Source of the DNA: Candidatus Thorarchaeota archaeon
GTDB lineage: Archaea > Asgardarchaeota > Thorarchaeia > Thorarchaeales > Thorarchaeaceae
Reading direction: 5' to 3'
Length of the DNA stretch: 13,581 bases
Assembly (NCBI GenBank): GCA_003345595.1
Contig: PRDI01000105.1
Span: 1 to 13,581, forward strand
In this document: positions 4,851 through 13,581 of the stretch, piece after piece
Layout of the letters: each line of letters opens with the position of its first letter
How positions within the stretch are numbered: position 1 is the first letter of the stretch
The notes under the pieces: generated by a model
What the model saw: only the letters and a program-made list of their open reading frames with translations
Databases searched by the model: none
What the model was told of the DNA's origin: nothing
Translations under genes and position numbers: made by a program

Positions 4851-5566
4851 CTAGACCTTACACGCGGCTTAATACCCTCTGAGGGCTTCTCCGTTTCTTC
4901 CGGCGGAGGTACTAGCTTGACCCATATTATGTCCTTCTTGTCCATCCAGAGGTCAATGAATGCTCTTGCATAGAGATGCAGCAGTGAGAAGAAGATGCGA
5001 ACTATCTCTCTTCGCGTGTTATTGACCAGCAGATCAGTGAATCTGACGACTTCACCCATTTTGACGATCTTGCTGATGTCTGCATATACGTCGGCGATGG
5101 TTTCCTCGATGTTCACCCGGGACGTATCCATGCTGAAAGACAGGGGTCCTGCCTCTGATTTTCCGTGCCGCGACTGAGGAATTGGCCGTTCTCTTATGCC
5201 CTTGCTCAGAACTCGGTCCATTGCCATGAGCAGTTCCTGCAGGGTTACTCTTCTGTTTGTGAGCCTGAATGGCGGAAGTATCTGGGGGATAGCGAGTTCC
5301 TCTTCCTCCTCACCTACTTCAGGAGGAATCAGGCCAAGTTCCAAGAGGTCTCTAGTCTTCTTCATGAAGATGACTGATGCAGAATAGAGCGCGTTTCCTG
5401 AAACTCGGAAGTCAATGTCCCCCATCCTTCTCATTTCTTGCAGGAAGCCTGCAACCAGCTTCCCGACATCCACGTTCCAAGGTTCGATGTTGTCCAGCTG
5501 AAGAACATCAGTGAGGAGGATGTAGGGTGGCGACGCCCAGAAGGGCGTATCATCACTCGTGCTCAC
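4847..5566 (-). CDS. scpA: Segregation and condensation protein A (kleisin)
   Basis: IEPWNVDV, DFRVSGNALYSAS, RRVTLQELL and C-terminal wHTH IVRIFFSLLHL. It lies between smc and scpB with GTGA overlaps. Confidence 0.93.
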   Translation of the reverse strand: MSTSDDTPFWASPPYILLTDVLQLDNIEPWNVDVGKLVAGFLQEMRRMGDIDFRVSGNALYSASVIFMKKTRDLLELGLIPPEVGEEEEELAIPQILPPFRLTNRRVTLQELLMAMDRVLSKGIRERPIPQSRHGKSEAGPLSFSMDTSRVNIEETIADVYADISKIVKMGEVVRFTDLLVNNTRREIVRIFFSLLHLYARAFIDLWMDKKDIIWVKLVPPPEETEKPSEGIKPRVRSR

Positions 5567-8500
5567 GCTGACTCAGCCACCTCCTGAAGGTCCACTGAAA
5601 CAATCCTGGATATGCCATCTTGGTTTGACACGCCAATGAGCATGTCCGCTTTTCGCACGGTGGTGTCCCTGAGCGACACCACTATGAACTGGGAGTTCTT
5701 GGACATTTCTGATATCAACAGTGCGACGTTGTGCGCATTGACATCGTCCAGGGCCGCGTCTATCTCATCAAAGACATAGAAGCTTGCGGGGTTGTGCATT
5801 TGAATGGCGAAGATCAATGCCAGTCCCGTGAGTGTCTTCTCTCCGCCGCTCATCGCATCAAGAGAAACCAGTTCTTTGCCTGCAGGTTTAGATCTGACAG
5901 TTATGCCCCCCATCAGCGGGTGTTCAGCATTCTCTAGCATCAGGTTTGCCTCGCCGTCTGGCGAGAGCTTGGCAAACACCTTCGAGAAGTTGTCTGCAAT
6001 ATCGTTGTATACTTGGAGGAATTTCTGGGTCTTTTCTTTCTCCAGCTCCTCCATGAACGACAGGATCTCCTTGTGTTCCTTCTCAAGCTGCGTCTTCTTC
6101 TCGACAATCTCGTCGTATCTGTCTTTTTCAGTATCATAATCCGTGAGCGACTTCAGGTTGACTGGACCCATTGCCTCAAGTTCTCTCTCAATCTCTTTGA
6201 TCTTCTCTTCAAGGTCCTCGATCGCTTTGGCAGTCAGCTCACGTTGCCCCGCTCTCTTCTCGAGCTCTGTTTCCACATCGCTCATCGTGGCTAGCTGGGC
6301 AGTGAGTCCGACCAAGTCGGTTTCAAGGCGCGAGCGTTCTACTTGGAGCCGGTAGACGGCTTTCTCGTTTCCAGTTTGTGACTCCTTGATTTCTTCCTGC
6401 TTCAGCCTGAGGTTTCTGATGGTTTCTTTCAGTTTCAGCTGCCGTACTCGCTTATCTTTGACTGCGGTGTCGATCTGTTCTCTCTCTGACTTCAGTTTGA
6501 GGAAATCGCTCTCTTTTGCCCTAAGGTCTGCCTCAATAGATGTAGCATCCTCTTCCAGACTCGGCAATACTGCCTCCAGTGACGCGATTCGGAGTTCCAG
6601 TTCTACTGACTTGGGCAAGTATCTCTCTTGAATCGAAACTCTCAGTGCGGAGGTTTCAGTCCGAATCCTCTCGTGGTTTCGCTTGTGCTGTTCTAGGACT
6701 TCCTTCAGATCTCTCAAGTCCTGATTCAACTTGCCCGTGCCTGACTTCGCCAGTATTTCGTTGCACTGGTCTCTTTGTTCTCTGACTCTTTCTCTCTGAG
6801 CAGTGAGCTCCTCATCTCGAGTCCTGAGCTCGGATATCTGCTTCTCCAGTTCCTCAATTGTGACTCTTGCCTTGTCAGTCTTCTCTTTCAGTTTCTCTGC
6901 TTTTTGTTCCCTGTCCCTGAGTTTCTCCTCTAGGCCCTTCAGTTCCAACCCGTCCCTGTAATTCCGCTTAGAAATGTCTTCAATCTCGCGGTCAAGTGCC
7001 CTTTTCCTGCTCAGGAGCTCTTCCTGCTGTTCTTTCAACTCAGACAGGATGTCCTCAAGGCCCTTGAGGCGTGAAATCAGGTCTGGGCTTGTGTCCTCCT
7101 CTTGAAGTGAGAGCCCCGTTGAATCTCTATGGAAGTGTCCTCCAGTGATGAGTCCTGAGCGTTCTACCAAGTCGCCCTCCAACGAAACCGCTCTACAGTT
7201 GTCGAAACCCACGGCCTTTGCGGTATCGAAGTCCTTGGTCACAAGTGTGTCCGAAAACACGAACTCAAAGGCCGGACGCATCTTCGGGTTAAAGGTCACA
7301 AGGTCCAGTGCATAGCCTATCACGCCCTCTCTCTGTGGCTTCCGACTCGGTCTTCGTGTCTTTATCCTGTTGAGTGGGATGAACGAGGCCCGTCCTACTC
7401 GCTCTTTCTTAAGCACCTCAATACATCGGGTGGCCACATCCTCATTCTCTACGACTATGTGGGACAGTCTGTTACCCGCCGCTACCTGCATGGCTGTGGC
7501 ATAGTCCGGGTTTATGACCCCCAGTTCTGCAACTGTGCCGTAGACCCCGTCAATCTCTCCCTTGTCGCGTAGTTCAAGCACTCTGGCCAAGGCTCTCCGG
7601 CGTTTCAAGAACGTCTCTTCGGCCTCTCTCAATGCATCCTGACGAGCCTGCAGCTTAATCAGTTCTTCCTTTGTCGAGGCAACGAGCTTGCTACTCTCAC
7701 TCACCTGCGCGTCCACTGTGGCAAGTTGCCTCTCAGTATCCTCAAGTTCCTGCCGCCTTCCAACTTCGGACTCATGCAGTTTCTGAAGGGCTGTAGTCTT
7801 TGCCGGGACGATGAATCTGAGTTCTAGCAGTTCCTCGTCTGTCTTCTTCGTGGAATCTTCAGCATCACGTAACTCCTCGTACGTGAGCCCCAATTCCTTA
7901 CTATCTGACCTTATGGTAGACCTGATTTCAGTCACACCCTCATCGAGGTGTGCCATCTGTGTGTTGAGGTCCTGAAGCCTTAGAGTGGCTTCATAGTATG
8001 CAGACTGCTCTTTCTCAAGAAGACCCTCGAGTCGTGCAATGTCAGTTGAGCACTCCAGAATCTCCTTGTCAAGACTCTCAAGTTCGAGTTGCTTCTCCTT
8101 GGTGCCATGTTCCGCAGCGGTCATTTGGTCTTTCGTGGAACTCAGCTGTTTCTCAAGCGCGTCCCGTTCTTGTCTGGTTCTGTCATAATCACTCTTTGCA
8201 CGATCGAGCTTGCTCCGAAAGTGTTCAACCTCTGCAGTCATGGTACCATACTGCTCAGAAACTCTTGAGGCGTCACCGCCGGTTATCAGGTCGATCTCCT
8301 GTTCTATTTCTCCGATTTCGGACTCGGTCTTGGCCATGTCTGCTTCGACCTTGGTCAGCTGCTTGGCAAACCTCTCAGCATCTGCGGCTCGCTCTGCAAG
8401 TGTTTCGTCTATCGTAGTTGTCCGGTTCTTGGACTTGATGACTGTCCAAGTCAAGCTCTCAATTCTGATCTGCTGTATCTGATCACGTAGACCGGTGTAA

Positions 8501-9153
8501 CGGAGGGCGTCTTTCCTCTCCGCTTCCAGACGCTCCAGCTGATGACGACGTTCTTGAAGCTGTGTTTCGACCTTGCCTAGGTTGGTTTCACTCTCTGCAA
8601 GCTTCTTGAGTGCTTTCTCTTTCTGCTCGTCATAGGCTGATATGCCTGCAATCTCCTCAATGAGCTTCCGTCGTTCAATTGGGCTGACTTTGACCATCTG
8701 GGCAATCTCGCCTTGGAGTACAAGATTGTAGCCGTTTGGGTCGACACCTATGCCGCCGAGGATGTCTATGACCGCCGCACGGGTGACCATCTTGCCGTTT
8801 ATCCTGCAAACCGACTTACCAGATTCGTCCAGCTCTCTCTCAACAACGACTCTATCGGCGTCAATCTGCAGTTTTCTGTCCCTGTTATTGAAGCAGAGCT
8901 CCACAATAGCTGACTTGGCCTTTGGAGGCATGTCTGGTTTAGGTGGAGTATAGAGCAGCTCCGAGAAGACATTAGCACGCAACGTCTTGGCACTCAGCTG
9001 CCCGAGCACGAAAAGAATCGCATCAATCACGTTGGACTTGCCTGACCCGTTCGGCCCGACGATGCATGTGAAGCCAGGGCTCAGGTTAATCGTGACGGTG
9101 TCCCGGCCAAATGACTTGAAGCCTTTGCATACTAGCTTCTCGATGTGAACCAA
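5563..9153 (-). CDS. smc: Chromosome segregation protein SMC
   Basis: GFKSFG, Walker A GPNGSGKSN, Q-loop VLQG, long coiled coils, hinge (GVYGTVAEL...GRASFIPL...LEGDLVERSGLITGG), signature MSGGEK and Walker B/D-loop YVFDEIDAALD. 1196 aa, TTG start. Confidence 0.99.
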   Translation of the reverse strand: MVHIEKLVCKGFKSFGRDTVTINLSPGFTCIVGPNGSGKSNVIDAILFVLGQLSAKTLRANVFSELLYTPPKPDMPPKAKSAIVELCFNNRDRKLQIDADRVVVERELDESGKSVCRINGKMVTRAAVIDILGGIGVDPNGYNLVLQGEIAQMVKVSPIERRKLIEEIAGISAYDEQKEKALKKLAESETNLGKVETQLQERRHQLERLEAERKDALRYTGLRDQIQQIRIESLTWTVIKSKNRTTTIDETLAERAADAERFAKQLTKVEADMAKTESEIGEIEQEIDLITGGDASRVSEQYGTMTAEVEHFRSKLDRAKSDYDRTRQERDALEKQLSSTKDQMTAAEHGTKEKQLELESLDKEILECSTDIARLEGLLEKEQSAYYEATLRLQDLNTQMAHLDEGVTEIRSTIRSDSKELGLTYEELRDAEDSTKKTDEELLELRFIVPAKTTALQKLHESEVGRRQELEDTERQLATVDAQVSESSKLVASTKEELIKLQARQDALREAEETFLKRRRALARVLELRDKGEIDGVYGTVAELGVINPDYATAMQVAAGNRLSHIVVENEDVATRCIEVLKKERVGRASFIPLNRIKTRRPSRKPQREGVIGYALDLVTFNPKMRPAFEFVFSDTLVTKDFDTAKAVGFDNCRAVSLEGDLVERSGLITGGHFHRDSTGLSLQEEDTSPDLISRLKGLEDILSELKEQQEELLSRKRALDREIEDISKRNYRDGLELKGLEEKLRDREQKAEKLKEKTDKARVTIEELEKQISELRTRDEELTAQRERVREQRDQCNEILAKSGTGKLNQDLRDLKEVLEQHKRNHERIRTETSALRVSIQERYLPKSVELELRIASLEAVLPSLEEDATSIEADLRAKESDFLKLKSEREQIDTAVKDKRVRQLKLKETIRNLRLKQEEIKESQTGNEKAVYRLQVERSRLETDLVGLTAQLATMSDVETELEKRAGQRELTAKAIEDLEEKIKEIERELEAMGPVNLKSLTDYDTEKDRYDEIVEKKTQLEKEHKEILSFMEELEKEKTQKFLQVYNDIADNFSKVFAKLSPDGEANLMLENAEHPLMGGITVRSKPAGKELVSLDAMSGGEKTLTGLALIFAIQMHNPASFYVFDEIDAALDDVNAHNVALLISEMSKNSQFIVVSLRDTTVRKADMLIGVSNQDGISRIVSVDLQEVAESA

Positions 9154-9347
9154 GGCACCATCCCTTCCGACTTCCTAGATGGCCATTTCTGGGCAGAGGC
9201 GTGTCTGACTATTATCTGGGTGATACGTGACACTAAATACGGTTGGTATGACGGTGGTAATACCACGAATGATACCCACGTATTCCAATCTTAGCGAATC
9301 CGCTTACATAAAGCTACAAAAAGATAGCTCTGGGACCTACCTTCCCA

Positions 9348-9716
9348 TCAGGCCTTGACCATCGACATGAGCGCCCGTTTGAGTGCGATTCTGAGAAGGC
9401 CCATTGACTCTTTCGCGCCTTCTCCAGCGATTGCAGCAAGGACTAGTTGTACGTCACCCAAGACTATGACATATCCCTTGTCCGATGCGATACTGATTTC
9501 CTTCAGACTGCCTTTGTCAACCGCGCTGACTAGTTGCGACGAGTTGGCAGATATCTTGGCGATCAGCGATGCAACGTCCGTGTGCTTGATGCCTGCCGTA
9601 ACGGTGTGACCGAACAACACCTTGCCCTTGTCATCACAGACCACGATGCCCTGTATGTCAGCATTCGCCGCCATGGTCTGCGCGACGACTGACTCTATCT
9701 TGGCCTTGTCCACCAT
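9348..9716 (-). CDS. Roadblock/LC7 domain protein
   Basis: Helix followed by IQGIVVCDDKGKVL, a helix, then GSLKEISIASDKGYVIV-LVLAAIA and a final helix (MGLLRIALKRA), which fits the Roadblock alpha-beta pattern. Start at ATG 9716 with GGAGG upstream; 122 aa. Confidence 0.85.
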   Translation of the reverse strand: MVDKAKIESVVAQTMAANADIQGIVVCDDKGKVLFGHTVTAGIKHTDVASLIAKISANSSQLVSAVDKGSLKEISIASDKGYVIVLGDVQLVLAAIAGEGAKESMGLLRIALKRALMSMVKA

Positions 9717-9771
9717 CGTGACAGTCCTCCGAAGAGTTTCGCCTAATATCATCAACTAGAGGGCTCTGAGC

Positions 9772-10033: not shown

Positions 10034-11665
10034 ATGCCCATGCTTAGGACCAGTTCAGAGGCCTTTCCAGCCTCAAGAGACATGATTAGCGAGATCCCGT
10101 ATGTCCTGCGTGTTGAGTTCAGAGACCTAGCACGCGACGTAACAAAAATCACAGGAATACCAATCACATGTCACAAGTGTAACGGTTTTCTGATGAGCGC
10201 AGATCAGATTGTTGAGGACAGGAAGGTCGGGAAGCACTTCGTCTGCCCCTTCTGTGGCACTTTGAACATGATTGCAGGTGAAGTAGTCCTTGCTGGCTCT
10301 GACACGGATTTCATCATCAAGCCAGGTCCAGACAAGACCGAAACCACAACCACTGCAGCCACCACTGCGGGCGGTAGGTCATTTCTGGCCGTGATTGATG
10401 TGTCCGGCTCAATGGCTGGAGCCAATCTGGCAGCAGTGAAGAGGAGCCTGACCACCTCTGTTGAAAGCCTAGCTGCGAACTCTCCCGACACGTTGTTCGG
10501 ATTGATAGAGTTTGAGAGTTCTGTTCTGTTTCGCAATATGGAAACTGGTGAGGCGGTGCAGCTTCCAAGAGAGTCCTTTGCGAGCTTCGAAACCATCACT
10601 GAAGCCGCACGAAGACTCATGGACCGAATCAAGCTCATCAAGGTGGGAGGAAATGCTGGACCTCTGAAGCGTCACATCAATGCCCTGAGAGAGCAGGGCG
10701 GGACAGCTCTTGGTCCTGCGGTAGCCATGGCGTGTGTCATTGCCAAGCACCGAGGTGTAGGCAGGGTGGTCCTTCTCACAGACGGACTTGCGAACGAAGG
10801 CATTGGTGCTCTTGAGGGCTATCAGGTCACTCCTGGAAACAAGTACTATGAAGACCTAGGGCGTTTGTTCAAAGACAATGGCACAGCGATTGATGTAGTT
10901 GGGATCGCCACTGGTGCAGGGATGGAGCTGAAAACATTGGGCCTGATGCCTGAAGCCACAGGTGGCCAGATGTATTATGTCACTCCAAATGAGCTGGACA
11001 AGAGCCTGTCGGAGCTAGCGGGAGCATCGTTGCTTGGCCGCGATGTCCAAGTTCGGCTTCTTACTCCATCAGGCGTGAAAGTCAAGGACGCTTCAGGCGT
11101 ATCAAGAGCCGTTGTAGACGAACTTAGGACTAAGAGCGAAAGCAGGATAGGGGTTGTGGGTGAGAATCACGAGCTCTATTTCGAGGTGGAGCCAGAGAGC
11201 ACGCTCAAGGCTAAGGAAGTCCCAATTCAGGTGCAGGTCGAATACACTGACCAAGACGGATCCAGACGAATGCGCACTTTCACTAAGAAGCTGCAGGTCA
11301 CTTCAGATGAGAAAGAGTTGGTCAAGACAATGGACCCGACAATCGGCGCCACTTTCGTTGTCCAGAAGGCTGGAGAGGAGGCCTTAGGTGGTGGTCGTGC
11401 CGCTGGCATGAGTCGGATTGCCAGTTACAGGGCTGCAATGAAGAAGAAGGCCAAGGCCGCGCCAGCGCCGGTACAGGCGAAGCTGCAGAGAGCCGATGAT
11501 GCGCTTGCCACAGAAGAGGAGAACATGGAACGTCAGGAAGCAGCAGTGGGCAGAGCACGAGCTGGAGCGCCATCAGCTGCAGCAGATCAAGCAGTAACTG
11601 AGAACTTGGCCCAAATGAGGAAAGCATCCAAGGCTCTATTTGGCGATGAAGAGGATGAGAAGTAG
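10034..11665 (+). CDS. Sec23/Sec24-like zinc finger + vWA (trunk) + beta-sandwich protein
   Basis: PITCHKCNGFL...FVCPFCGTLN (C46, C49, C71, C74) fits the Sec23/24 Zn-finger pattern PxxCxxC...CxFCxxxN. The vWA domain has IDVSGSM, GGTALGPA, VVLLTDGLANEG and EATGGQMY. It is followed by beta-rich VQVRLL...IQVQVEYTDQDGSRRMRTFT, which resembles the Sec23/24 beta-sandwich, and an Ala-rich helical tail. Confidence 0.85.
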   Translation: MPMLRTSSEAFPASRDMISEIPYVLRVEFRDLARDVTKITGIPITCHKCNGFLMSADQIVEDRKVGKHFVCPFCGTLNMIAGEVVLAGSDTDFIIKPGPDKTETTTTAATTAGGRSFLAVIDVSGSMAGANLAAVKRSLTTSVESLAANSPDTLFGLIEFESSVLFRNMETGEAVQLPRESFASFETITEAARRLMDRIKLIKVGGNAGPLKRHINALREQGGTALGPAVAMACVIAKHRGVGRVVLLTDGLANEGIGALEGYQVTPGNKYYEDLGRLFKDNGTAIDVVGIATGAGMELKTLGLMPEATGGQMYYVTPNELDKSLSELAGASLLGRDVQVRLLTPSGVKVKDASGVSRAVVDELRTKSESRIGVVGENHELYFEVEPESTLKAKEVPIQVQVEYTDQDGSRRMRTFTKKLQVTSDEKELVKTMDPTIGATFVVQKAGEEALGGGRAAGMSRIASYRAAMKKKAKAAPAPVQAKLQRADDALATEEENMERQEAAVGRARAGAPSAAADQAVTENLAQMRKASKALFGDEEDEK

Positions 11666-11892
11666 GTTCTCGATGAGTCCTCTCCTCCTTGTGGCTGCAT
11701 GGTTCGCCGCGAAACGAGTGTGTCTAGTCACGCATTGCCTGCGGCCCCTGTGCTAGTCAGAACATTGGCGCGGTCGGCATCTCAGAATGCGCAATTGGCC
11801 TGTTGAGAAGACCCTGTTGCCACAAGTCTCAAATACCCAAGCGTGGCGTAGAAATGCTAAATGCACAATTGACAGCAGCGGGGATTCTACAG

Positions 11893-12192
11893 TTGGTTAG
11901 CCAGGACAAACTCCGATCGATTCTCTCCAAAATCAAGGCGCAAGGGGGAGTCCGAGGAGTTGTTGTCACAAACATGGAAGGCTTGCCACTTAGCAGTGAT
12001 CTAGACCCCGAAACGACTGAAGCTGTCGCCGCCATAATAACCTCCCTCGTGGGCAAGGCGCTCGATGCAGTGAGAGAACTCCGAGAGGGGTCTCTGTCAT
12101 TCCTGACTCTCGATACATCTAAGGGTCAGATTAACATAGCACCCGACGTGAAAGAGGGGTTGATATTAGTAGTCCTGAAGAAACCGAGCTGA
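11893..12192 (+). CDS. Roadblock/LC7 protein, dynein light chain roadblock (DYNLRB)-like
   Basis: 99 aa from TTG 11893 (MVSQDKLRSIL), with GGVRGVVVTNMEGLPLSS, KALDAVREL, LSFLTL and IAPD. The ORF-track extension to 11803 is probably not translated. Confidence 0.88.
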   Translation: MVSQDKLRSILSKIKAQGGVRGVVVTNMEGLPLSSDLDPETTEAVAAIITSLVGKALDAVRELREGSLSFLTLDTSKGQINIAPDVKEGLILVVLKKPS

Positions 12193-12207: not shown

Positions 12208-12675
12208 ATGAGCGATCCAAAGGTCTTCGACAAGATCCTCACTGAGATCATCCGCCAAGACAAGGGCATAAAGAAGGTAATCCTTGTGGACAAGACTGGG
12301 CTGACAATTGCAAACGTGAGCAAGCTCAGCTACTTTCCGATTGACACAGATTCAATAGGTGCGATTGCGAGCGCAGTGTTTTGCGCCAGCGAGGAACAGG
12401 GGAAGAACCTACAGATCGGGGAGCTTGAGATTGTCACCTCCGAGTTCTCAGAAGGTAAGATATTCGCCTCTGCATGCGGCAAGGGTGTTCTTTGTGTTGT
12501 TTCCGAGTCTGAGGTGAACATTGGCCTTATCCGGCTCATCATGAAGAAGCAGGGTGTTCAGCTCGCAGAAGAGTTGGAGAAGTTCTTGGCAGTCGAACCC
12601 ACAGCACCATCAAAGGGCAAGGAGCTGGATGAAGAGGATCTGAAGTCTGCTCTGGCAGAGCTCGAAAAGGTGTGA
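12208..12675 (+). CDS. Roadblock/LC7 (MglB-like) protein with acidic C-terminal helix
   Basis: GIKKVILVDKTGLTI, IGAIASAVFCAS, VNIGLIRL, then a linker and ELDEEDLKSALAELEKV. GGAG RBS at 12195-12198. Confidence 0.9.
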   Translation: MSDPKVFDKILTEIIRQDKGIKKVILVDKTGLTIANVSKLSYFPIDTDSIGAIASAVFCASEEQGKNLQIGELEIVTSEFSEGKIFASACGKGVLCVVSESEVNIGLIRLIMKKQGVQLAEELEKFLAVEPTAPSKGKELDEEDLKSALAELEKV

Positions 12676-12732
12676 GCCCTCGCTGGTGGCCGGAACTGAC
12701 CTGTCAAGTCGGCTCGTGTCTACTTGACGGAC

Positions 12733-12746
12733 AAAGGCTTTTATGA
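12733..12746 (+). promoter_or_regulatory. Candidate BRE/TATA promoter upstream of the GTPase gene
   Basis: AAAGGC followed by TTTTATGA in the 247-bp gap between the Roadblock and GTPase genes. Confidence 0.35.
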
Positions 12747-12922
12747 GAGTACAATGTTACCACAGCCAGTTACCCGATTTGGGATGCCCGGCTCGGGAAC
12801 TGATACTTGGCTCTCAGAGCATGAGAATTGCCCCGTGGCACGTACTCTCACACTGGTGGTGTTTCTGCGCCACCATGGCGGGGACGGTCCACAAGAACAG
12901 CATAGCACCGAGGTGTTGAAAC

Positions 12923-13486
12923 GTGCGCAAGGATGACAAGGGCAGAATTCATCTCAAGCTGGTGTTCTATGGTCCGAGCCTAGGCGGCAAGACGACTGCG
13001 CTTCGTTGGCTGTACGGAAAGGTCGAGGGTCTCCAGAAGGGAGAGTTTACGGCAATCGAAGATGAAACAAACCGCACCCTGTTCTTTGACTACGTACCGA
13101 TGAGCGCAGGAGGTCGTGTCCTCTTTGACGTGTTCACTGTTGCAGGACAGAAGCGACACAGACACCAGAGGAAGGTTGTGCTCCAAGGGACTGACGGGAT
13201 ACTGTTCGTTGCGGACTCATCTCCCGACCAGCGAGAGGAGAATGTTGAGAGCTTCGAGGAATTGAAGCTCTTCTTAGGTGATGTACTGGGCCGTGATATT
13301 CCCATTGTAGTCATGCTGAACAAGCGTGACCTGCCCAACAGGATGTCTCGTGATGAGATGCTTGATCTACTGGGACTCGGTGGTAACGTACCGATTTACG
13401 AAACCATCGCCGTCCAGGGCGTAGGAGTTAAAAGAGCCTTCCAGGCCATAGCACGGGAAGTCATCCTTAAGAGAATGTACAAGTGA
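12923..13486 (+). CDS. MglA-family small GTPase (Ras superfamily)
   Basis: G1 YGPSLGGKTT, G2 RTLFFD, MglA-type G3 TVAGQ (no DxxG), DGILFVADS, G4 NKRD and G5 ETIAVQG. GTG start with GAGGTG at 12910-12915. Confidence 0.95.
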   Translation: MRKDDKGRIHLKLVFYGPSLGGKTTALRWLYGKVEGLQKGEFTAIEDETNRTLFFDYVPMSAGGRVLFDVFTVAGQKRHRHQRKVVLQGTDGILFVADSSPDQREENVESFEELKLFLGDVLGRDIPIVVMLNKRDLPNRMSRDEMLDLLGLGGNVPIYETIAVQGVGVKRAFQAIAREVILKRMYK

Positions 13487-13505
13487 ATGCACCTAGGTGA
13501 GTCTG

Positions 13506-13581
13506 ATGAGCGAGTCGCGGGGCGATACACTCGAGGGAGTCCTGAACGAGCTGCAAGGCAGTATTCCCGAGATTGAGGCCT
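13506..13581 (+). CDS. Probable Roadblock/LC7 protein, N-terminus only (3'-truncated by window edge)
   Basis: AGGTGAG RBS at 13495-13501 and ATG 13506, giving MSESRGDTLEGVLNELQGSIPEIEA. This matches the first helix and entry into the first strand of Roadblock domains. Only 25 codons are visible. Confidence 0.65.
   Translation, partial: MSESRGDTLEGVLNELQGSIPEIEA

Follow-up and report, generated by a model that had tools for sequence, protein, structure and literature searches.

DYNLRB is one of the few subunits of dynein with clear prokaryotic relatives. In dynein, the face of DYNLRB that is left free by the lack of helix a3 is occupied by a helix of the dynein intermediate chain (PDB 3L9K, 6F1Z). 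The closest described protein is Odin-RBLC7 of Odinarchaeota LCB_4 (OLS18093.1), the structure of which (PDB 7F8F) was solved by molecular replacement with Drosophila DYNLRB and revealed a homodimer without a3 (Tran, Akil, Senju, Robinson 2024, Commun Biol 7:273, PMC10933270). For this short Asgard Roadblock, an open helix-binding site has been proposed in the same study (PMC10933270). The structural idea of the original prediction, the open helix site, is thus already in print. The paper contains no specific DYNLRB sequence phylogeny, family distribution or gene-neighbourhood survey; for MK-D1, it states that genes for GTPases and for Roadblocks do not, as a rule, share operons (PMC10933270). 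In their preprint, Liu et al. (bioRxiv 10.1101/2020.10.19.343400, later Nature 2021) assign three Roadblock/longin and two GTPase families to the Asgard core; the operon that they describe, Roadblock-Rab-DENN, is a different one. In the literature searched, no paper names DYNLRB and Asgard together. The RBLC7 kind of protein is known and structurally solved, and our work adds the phylogeny relative to DYNLRB, the start codon, the distribution and the cluster context rather than a new kind of system.

The window analysed here is a stretch of 13,581 nucleotides from a contig of a Thorarchaeota (Asgard) metagenome-assembled genome (2.7 Mb, 83% complete). It carries the genes for SMC, ScpA and ScpB on the minus strand, followed by these genes:

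9348 to 9755, minus strand: RBup, a divergently transcribed Roadblock that aligns with PDB 9JQ8 (MK-D1 Roadblock2) at E 6e-9
10034 to 11665, plus strand: a Sec23/24-like protein with a zinc finger, a vWA/trunk part and a beta-sandwich, as assigned by Pfam
11893 to 12192, plus strand: the short Roadblock (RBLC7 type), read from its open reading frame as 99 aa with a TTG start
12208 to 12675, plus strand: RBlong, an MglB-like long Roadblock of 155 aa that matches M. xanthus MglB at E 8e-7, tail included
12923 to 13486, plus strand: an MglA-type small GTPase of 187 aa, 730 nt downstream of the short Roadblock
13497 to 13581, plus strand: the 5' part of RB4, a fourth Roadblock, cut by the window end and complete on contig C7

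The RB4 gene, which begins in the window, runs on into contig C7 of this assembly (G000:C7:1035-1286), and the two contigs therefore abut; a complete RB4 is seen at L001:7605-7985 (126 aa). An Rfam scan of the window returned no RNA family. The open reading frame at 12724-12936 (70 aa), in the spacer between RBlong and the GTPase, is conserved in the two nearest genomes only and has no Pfam match; it is probably no gene.

The short Roadblock is a clear member of its superfamily: it matches Pfam Robl_LC7 (PF03259) with 58.3 bits (cut-off 23), covering profile positions 5-90 of 91. In the AlphaFold2 model, calculated from a 27-row alignment (pLDDT 89.5), helix a1 (residues 4-16) is followed by strands b1 (20-27) and b2 (32-35), helix a2 (39-62) and strands b3-b5 (71-96). 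The final element is the strand at 90-96 of the 99 residues, and a3 is lacking, in agreement with the claim that the C-terminal helix is missing. The face formed by a2 and the sheet is kept. In a Foldseek search with this model, 7F8F was the top hit, followed by DYNLRB chains (TM 0.8-0.9), long Roadblocks and LAMTOR5/2. The other two complete Roadblocks had been said to possess the extra helix: the model of RBlong contains a3, and for RBup a C-terminal helix is suggested by its sequence and the 9JQ8 alignment. Among database gene calls, most relatives of the short Roadblock have 96-99 aa, and a search for longer, fused forms yielded none at E<=1e-5, which is weak evidence. The protein and Odin-RBLC7 are orthologues, with 55% identity (phmmer E 5e-24) and the same truncated fold (Foldseek rmsd 1.1 A), and the window protein represents the Asgard short Roadblock family (RBLC7) in Thorarchaeota. 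The same genome encodes another, divergent short Roadblock (about 105 aa; G000:C58:18997-19227, minus strand), which likewise stops after strand 5 (..IRIAPQDEFILVTM..) and sits on a long branch on the RBLC7 and DYNLRB side of the tree described below.

Sequence searches, profile comparison, structure and phylogeny all place the short Roadblock with DYNLRB, apart from its Roadblock paralogues. First, in a phmmer search against all PDB chains, 7F8F ranked first (E 5e-24), and the DYNLRB/LC7 proteins of human, mouse, fly, Chlamydomonas, trypanosomatids and Tetrahymena came second, with E values from 2e-13 to 1e-5. The human, mouse and Drosophila proteins align over the full length (E 2e-13 to 4e-12, and 2e-13 for human DYNLRB1). 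After DYNLRB came long archaeal Roadblocks (7e-5, 3e-4) and then LAMTOR2 (0.02), and MglB was absent from the matches at E<=10. The motif pairs quoted in the original prediction, GVQGIIVVNTEGIPIKS / GVRGVVVTNMEGLPLSS, KARSTVRD / KALDAVRE, LTFL / LSFL and IMVAPD / INIAPD, are all found in the alignment with human DYNLRB1. Second, just 253 of 1.84 billion representative proteins reached E<=1e-3 in a phmmer search. The best 150 of these 253 comprise about 25 archaeal short Roadblocks, and the remainder are almost all eukaryotic DYNLRB proteins with DYNLRB motifs; ordinary archaeal long Roadblocks are first seen near E 1e-5. The match to DYNLRB is far beyond chance. Third, the alignment of Asgard short Roadblocks compared by hhalign with a DYNLRB alignment gave E 1e-30 at 38% identity, versus E 4e-7 and 22% identity for the alignment of the neighbouring RBlong.

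Finally, a maximum likelihood tree (86 rows, 101 columns, LG+C20+F+G4) separates the Asgard short Roadblocks together with eukaryotic DYNLRB from all other Roadblocks in the tree, with UFBoot 100 and SH-aLRT 98. The other side of this split holds RBlong, RBup, RB4, six further Roadblocks of the window genome and two ordinary archaeal Roadblocks, and neither LAMTOR nor bacterial MglB rows are part of the tree. The tree is built from short proteins, its bootstrap has not fully settled, and its DYNLRB rows and library representatives were chosen for their similarity with the query. A quick tree of 140 rows agrees with the split. Eukaryotic DYNLRB is monophyletic (100/99), with a stem of 0.65 changes per site, and arises within an unresolved comb of Asgard sequences, among which the window protein falls, outside of the eukaryotic clade. 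As the branching inside the joint group is unresolved, "ancestor of DYNLRB" and "sister of DYNLRB" are not separable. Taken together, the PDB and library searches, hhalign and the tree uphold the proposal that the protein is DYNLRB-like, and nearer to DYNLRB than to other prokaryotic Roadblocks, the three paralogues of the cluster included. The window protein is the closest prokaryotic relative of eukaryotic DYNLRB, and RBLC7 is either the source of eukaryotic DYNLRB or its sister family.

By all four measures (sequence, profile, structure, tree), DYNLRB1/2 (LC7, km23) is the family closest to the short Roadblock. Length and fold are the same, and over the full length the short Roadblock is 31-37% identical to light chains of known structure and up to about 40% identical to library representatives. 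A difference lies in the gene context, which in the case of the short Roadblock consists of an MglA-type GTPase and Roadblock paralogues. With profiles for the dynein heavy chain (Dynein_heavy) and intermediate chain (Dynein_IC2), no match was found in the 83% complete window genome, in line with the assumption that dynein is not present; the controls of this search were prokaryotes and contained no positive. The Ragulator subunits LAMTOR4 and LAMTOR5 share the architecture without a3 and occur together with long Roadblocks near a small GTPase. However, their similarity to the short Roadblock is far weaker than that of DYNLRB, and the GTPase in the window is of the MglA type, not a Rag. LAMTOR5 is reached with 29.8 bits in Pfam (cut-off 27), beneath the far stronger Robl_LC7/DYNLRB signal, and HBXIP/LAMTOR5 was matched in Foldseek at E 2e-5.

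Two properties of the neighbouring genes link the cluster to the MglA/MglB(/MglC) polarity switch of Myxococcus xanthus and Thermus thermophilus: the GTPase is of the MglA type and RBlong of the MglB type. The GTPase matches M. xanthus and T. thermophilus MglA at E 1e-38 as compared to 1e-12 for Arf, and it carries the TVAGQ and RTLFFD motifs. The additional Roadblock paralogues beside RBlong are reminiscent of MglC beside MglB, but the Asgard cluster has four Roadblock paralogues as opposed to one or two in the bacteria. The short Roadblock resembles MglB in being encoded near an mglA-type gene; it differs from MglB in the lack of a3 and of any MglB match in the PDB search, and the features of MglB are found in RBlong instead. 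The RBlong gene starts 15 nt past the stop codon of the short Roadblock and has its own AAGGAGA. Its model shows a3 at residues 105-128, a disordered linker and a terminal helix at 142-154; the linker varies in length and sequence, and the terminal helix, which ends ..LKSALAELEKV, has an end of the type ..L(K/E)xAL(x)ELE(K/R)x that is kept across the phylum. RBlong is 55-91% identical across the phylum, and 53 columns are invariant among 17 sequences that represent 11 families. The Myxococcus counterpart of the terminal helix binds MglA. For a Thorarchaeota pair, AlphaFold3 is reported not to have predicted such binding (PMC13408092, 2026). RB4 resembles Thor-RB (7F8M) and MK-D1 Roadblock3 (9JUE); these two and 9JQ8 all crystallised as homodimers. 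The Arco/Dip GTPase oscillator of Haloferax, considered as a relative of the GTPase module, is unrelated, with a SepF-like regulator and no Roadblock (bioRxiv 10.64898/2026.07.23.738820).

It had been considered that the groove might be filled by a translated N-terminal extension of the short Roadblock, with a start at 11803 or 11854. Comparison of 49 Thorarchaeota species speaks against this idea. In 47 of them, TTG or GTG is present at the aligned position of 11893, and in many, in-frame stops occur directly upstream, within a few codons. The ATG at 11854 is found in the closest relatives only, and 5 of the 13 codon positions that follow it differ in the relative L002, in which the mature protein is 95% identical. 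Moreover, a motif resembling a Shine-Dalgarno sequence, conserved as GCGRGGAT 8-12 nt before the start in most Thorarchaeota loci, lies inside the supposed extension. The extension is not conserved as coding sequence, most species have stops there, and we reject it; the short Roadblock starts at the TTG. Since the extension is not translated, the groove is not self-occupied. The upstream region contains these elements:

11786 to 11794, plus strand: the AATGCGCAA motif, which lies about 100 nt ahead of the short Roadblock and is conserved in nearly all Thorarchaeota loci
11820 to 11851, plus strand: a conserved non-coding block, CCACAAGTCTCAAATACCC..GGCGTAG, also written CCACAAGTCT(A/C)AAATA..GGCGTAG, 45-75 nt before the start
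11878 to 11885, plus strand: the Shine-Dalgarno-like GCGGGGAT, with the core GGGGA at 11880-11884, 8 nt before the TTG

In an alignment of about 46 Thorarchaeota upstream regions, the block at 11820 to 11851 has a TATA-like CTAAAATA in most relatives and is probably an archaeal promoter, judging from the sequence. The AATGCGCAA motif may be a regulator site. Both elements are kept in nearly all Thorarchaeota loci, in the stretch that separates the Sec23/24-like gene from the short Roadblock. A probable promoter and regulator site at this place would imply that transcription of the Roadblock operon is separate from that of the Sec23/24-like gene.

Three metagenomic relatives had contexts that were short or differed too much to be informative, and we used a survey of whole genomes instead. 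Of 400 genomes of the phylum, 364 yielded an orthologue of the short Roadblock in a six-frame search, most of them a single copy. It is present in 30 of the 33 families sampled; among the Thorarchaeota, 83 of 85 genomes have it. The named members of its match clusters are from Thor-, Heimdall-, Hod-, Borr- and Promethearchaeota only. Across Thorarchaeota, the short Roadblock is 76-99% identical, versus 57-69% for SMC, and the non-Thorarchaeota matches listed share 41-59% identity. In the 49 Thorarchaeota loci described below, the short Roadblock (78-99%), RBlong (85-100%) and the GTPase (91-99%) are highly conserved, and the Sec23/24-like protein has 51-93% identity. The constraint on the GTPase, where SMC is at 57-69%, is unusual for a prokaryotic small GTPase.

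In about 35 of 49 Thorarchaeota loci, the order is as in the window: SMC and RBup on the one strand, and divergent from them the Sec23/24-like gene, the short Roadblock, RBlong and, after a spacer of 0.2 to 4 kb, the GTPase. Many of the remaining loci are interrupted by contig ends. The Sec23/24-like gene is present in most of the 49 loci and in none of the 25 loci outside of Thorarchaeota; its insertion next to RBup and upstream of the short Roadblock is specific to Thorarchaeota, and it does not belong to the conserved core. In those 25 loci, RBup and the short Roadblock are 150-350 nt apart where they are adjacent, and over the whole phylum no neighbour of the short Roadblock is more constant than RBup. 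By family (f numbers), the arrangements in these 25 loci (and, in the first line, also in f1) are:

RBup, divergent from short Roadblock, RBlong, MglA-like GTPase and RB4: families f1, f2, f6, f14, f16, f30
Short Roadblock, RBlong, MglA-like GTPase and RB4, with no RBup beside: f4, f15
Co-directional cluster order without an adjacent GTPase: f28, f29
Short Roadblock followed by the GTPase (in f9 then by RB4): f8, f9
Short Roadblock divergent from the neighbouring GTPase: f10
Short Roadblock with RBlong: f13
Short Roadblock with RBup and RB4: f17, f19
RBup as the sole adjacent cluster gene: f21, f22, f23
A tandem pair of short Roadblocks: f11, f12 and a Hodarchaeales contig

The adjacency of the short Roadblock and an MglA-type GTPase is conserved in 11 families. 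Genomes of f21 to f23 carry RBlong and the GTPase at other sites; the GTPase is 47-57% identical, and for RBlong the best match reaches 64-73% identity in f21 and f22 and 39% in f23. The sampled genomes of f24, f26 and f27 have kept an MglA-like protein (E 1e-58), and neither an RBLC7 nor an RBlong orthologue was found in them; this co-absence probably reflects only one or a few events in related, incomplete genomes. The Odin-type locus (L060), which belongs to another class, encodes a protein almost identical to Odin-RBLC7 at the same cluster position as the window gene, but its MglA-like gene lies elsewhere in the genome and no Sec23/24-like gene adjoins RBLC7. SMC-ScpA adjoins RBup (window 5563-9755) not only in Thorarchaeota but also in five or more further Asgard families (L054, L059, L060, L062, L064), so that genes for chromosome condensation are conserved neighbours of the GTPase/Roadblock cluster.

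The tie to DYNLRB, the near-universal presence and the gene order with an MglA-type GTPase and three further Roadblocks provide a concrete and testable setting for the role of this light chain before dynein, and the cluster placement points to a GTPase-regulatory one. We consider it rather probable that the short Roadblock is a dimeric accessory platform of a Roadblock-regulated MglA-type GTPase switch, and not a motor subunit. By orthology with 7F8F and DYNLRB, the protein would dimerise, and the dimer face beside helix 1, the site of a3 in long Roadblocks, would be open to a helix of another protein. Judging from the gene context, its working partners may be the products of the cluster: the MglB-like RBlong, the MglA-type GTPase and the two further Roadblocks. 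The short Roadblock would then act as an accessory or scaffold subunit of the switch, like MglC beside MglB or LAMTOR4/5 in Ragulator. The 15-nt gap to RBlong with its own Shine-Dalgarno sequence, together with the promoter-like block and AATGCGCAA upstream in Thorarchaeota, suggests that the short Roadblock and RBlong may be made from one transcription unit. Some points speak against the proposed role: clustering within one phylum is partly shared descent, the cluster is dissolved in f22, the largest family sampled, and MK-D1 GTPases are generally not encoded in operons with Roadblocks (PMC10933270).

The short Roadblock might itself be the MglB-like GTPase-activating platform, with the a2 face of the homodimer binding the MglA-type GTPase and the open face serving localisation only. 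This is an unlikely reading, even though the a2/sheet face is retained and in f8 and f9 the MglA-like gene follows RBLC7 without an intervening long Roadblock (in f10, the neighbours are divergent): the bona fide MglB-like RBlong, conserved phylum-wide, is the more obvious regulator, and the PDB search with the short Roadblock retrieves no MglB.

If the short Roadblock is an accessory platform, the question arises which helix would bind to its open face. The original prediction had named the tail of RBlong and the C-terminal helix of the vWA protein, which is the Sec23/24-like protein. The latter can be ruled out as the general partner, since its gene occurs at this position in Thorarchaeota only and the conserved promoter-like block precedes the short Roadblock. 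Two distractions, the N-terminal extension and the Sec23/24-like neighbour as general partner, are thus removed. At most, the Sec23/24-like tail would be an extra ligand specific to this lineage. We think it very improbable that, in Thorarchaeota only, the open face binds this C-terminal helix and thereby couples a coat-like protein to the GTPase module. What favours such a coupling is the position of the gene directly upstream in most Thorarchaeota loci surveyed and the conserved tail motif DEAFTxxLAQM(K/R)(R/K)SSKxLF with its acidic end; yet the gene is missing from the cluster in 25 of 25 loci outside of Thorarchaeota, where the short Roadblock is equally constrained, the promoter-like block divides the two genes, and the Sec23/24-like protein is far less conserved than the Roadblocks and the GTPase. 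The complete C-terminus (11560-11665) reads APSxAADEAFTxxLAQM(K/R)(R/K)SSKxLF, then an acidic end, and is conserved within Thorarchaeota; from its sequence, the terminal motif is likely an amphipathic helix.

In the conserved core, the best candidate for the ligand is the terminal helix of RBlong. In a complex prediction of two short Roadblocks with RBlong residues 124-155, the ipSAE values were 0.03 and 0.02 (mark 0.32), a result obtained without controls that neither supports nor opposes this candidate. It is tempting to speculate that DYNLRB descends directly from the short Roadblock and that the latter ancestrally docked its face lacking a3 on a short, conserved helix of a partner in an MglA/MglB-type switch, with the terminal helix of RBlong again as the best docking candidate. 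We give this reading little chance of being correct; if it were true, the helix-in-groove mode of the dynein intermediate chain would have been inherited from a GTPase-regulating complex.

The homodimer assumed for the accessory platform is deduced from an orthologue that was expressed alone, and a heterodimer with a paralogue is possible. In its strict form, the short Roadblock would be an obligate heterodimer with RBup or RBlong, as known from LAMTOR4/5 or LC7a/LC7b; in the version with RBlong, the extra helix of the latter would fill the empty site of the short subunit within one dimer. Several observations are consistent with such a pairing: RBup is adjacent in 12 of the non-Thorarchaeota families surveyed, including ones in which the rest of the cluster is dispersed, just 15 nt separate the short Roadblock and RBlong, tandem pairs of short Roadblocks occur in Hodarchaeales-type genomes, and the LAMTOR5 score exceeds the Pfam cut-off. 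However, Odin-RBLC7, the RBup-like MK-D1 Roadblock2 and Roadblock3 all crystallise as homodimers, and DYNLRB is a homodimer too, and we regard an obligate heterodimer as rather doubtful. In the Hodarchaeales-type genomes (f11, f12), the two tandem copies are different from each other (L052:6001-6717, L084:6980-7663), which suggests, by analogy to LAMTOR4/5 or LC7a/LC7b, that they may form a heterodimeric pair. At L052, the tandem short Roadblocks lie downstream of a gene for a 463-aa V4R-domain protein.
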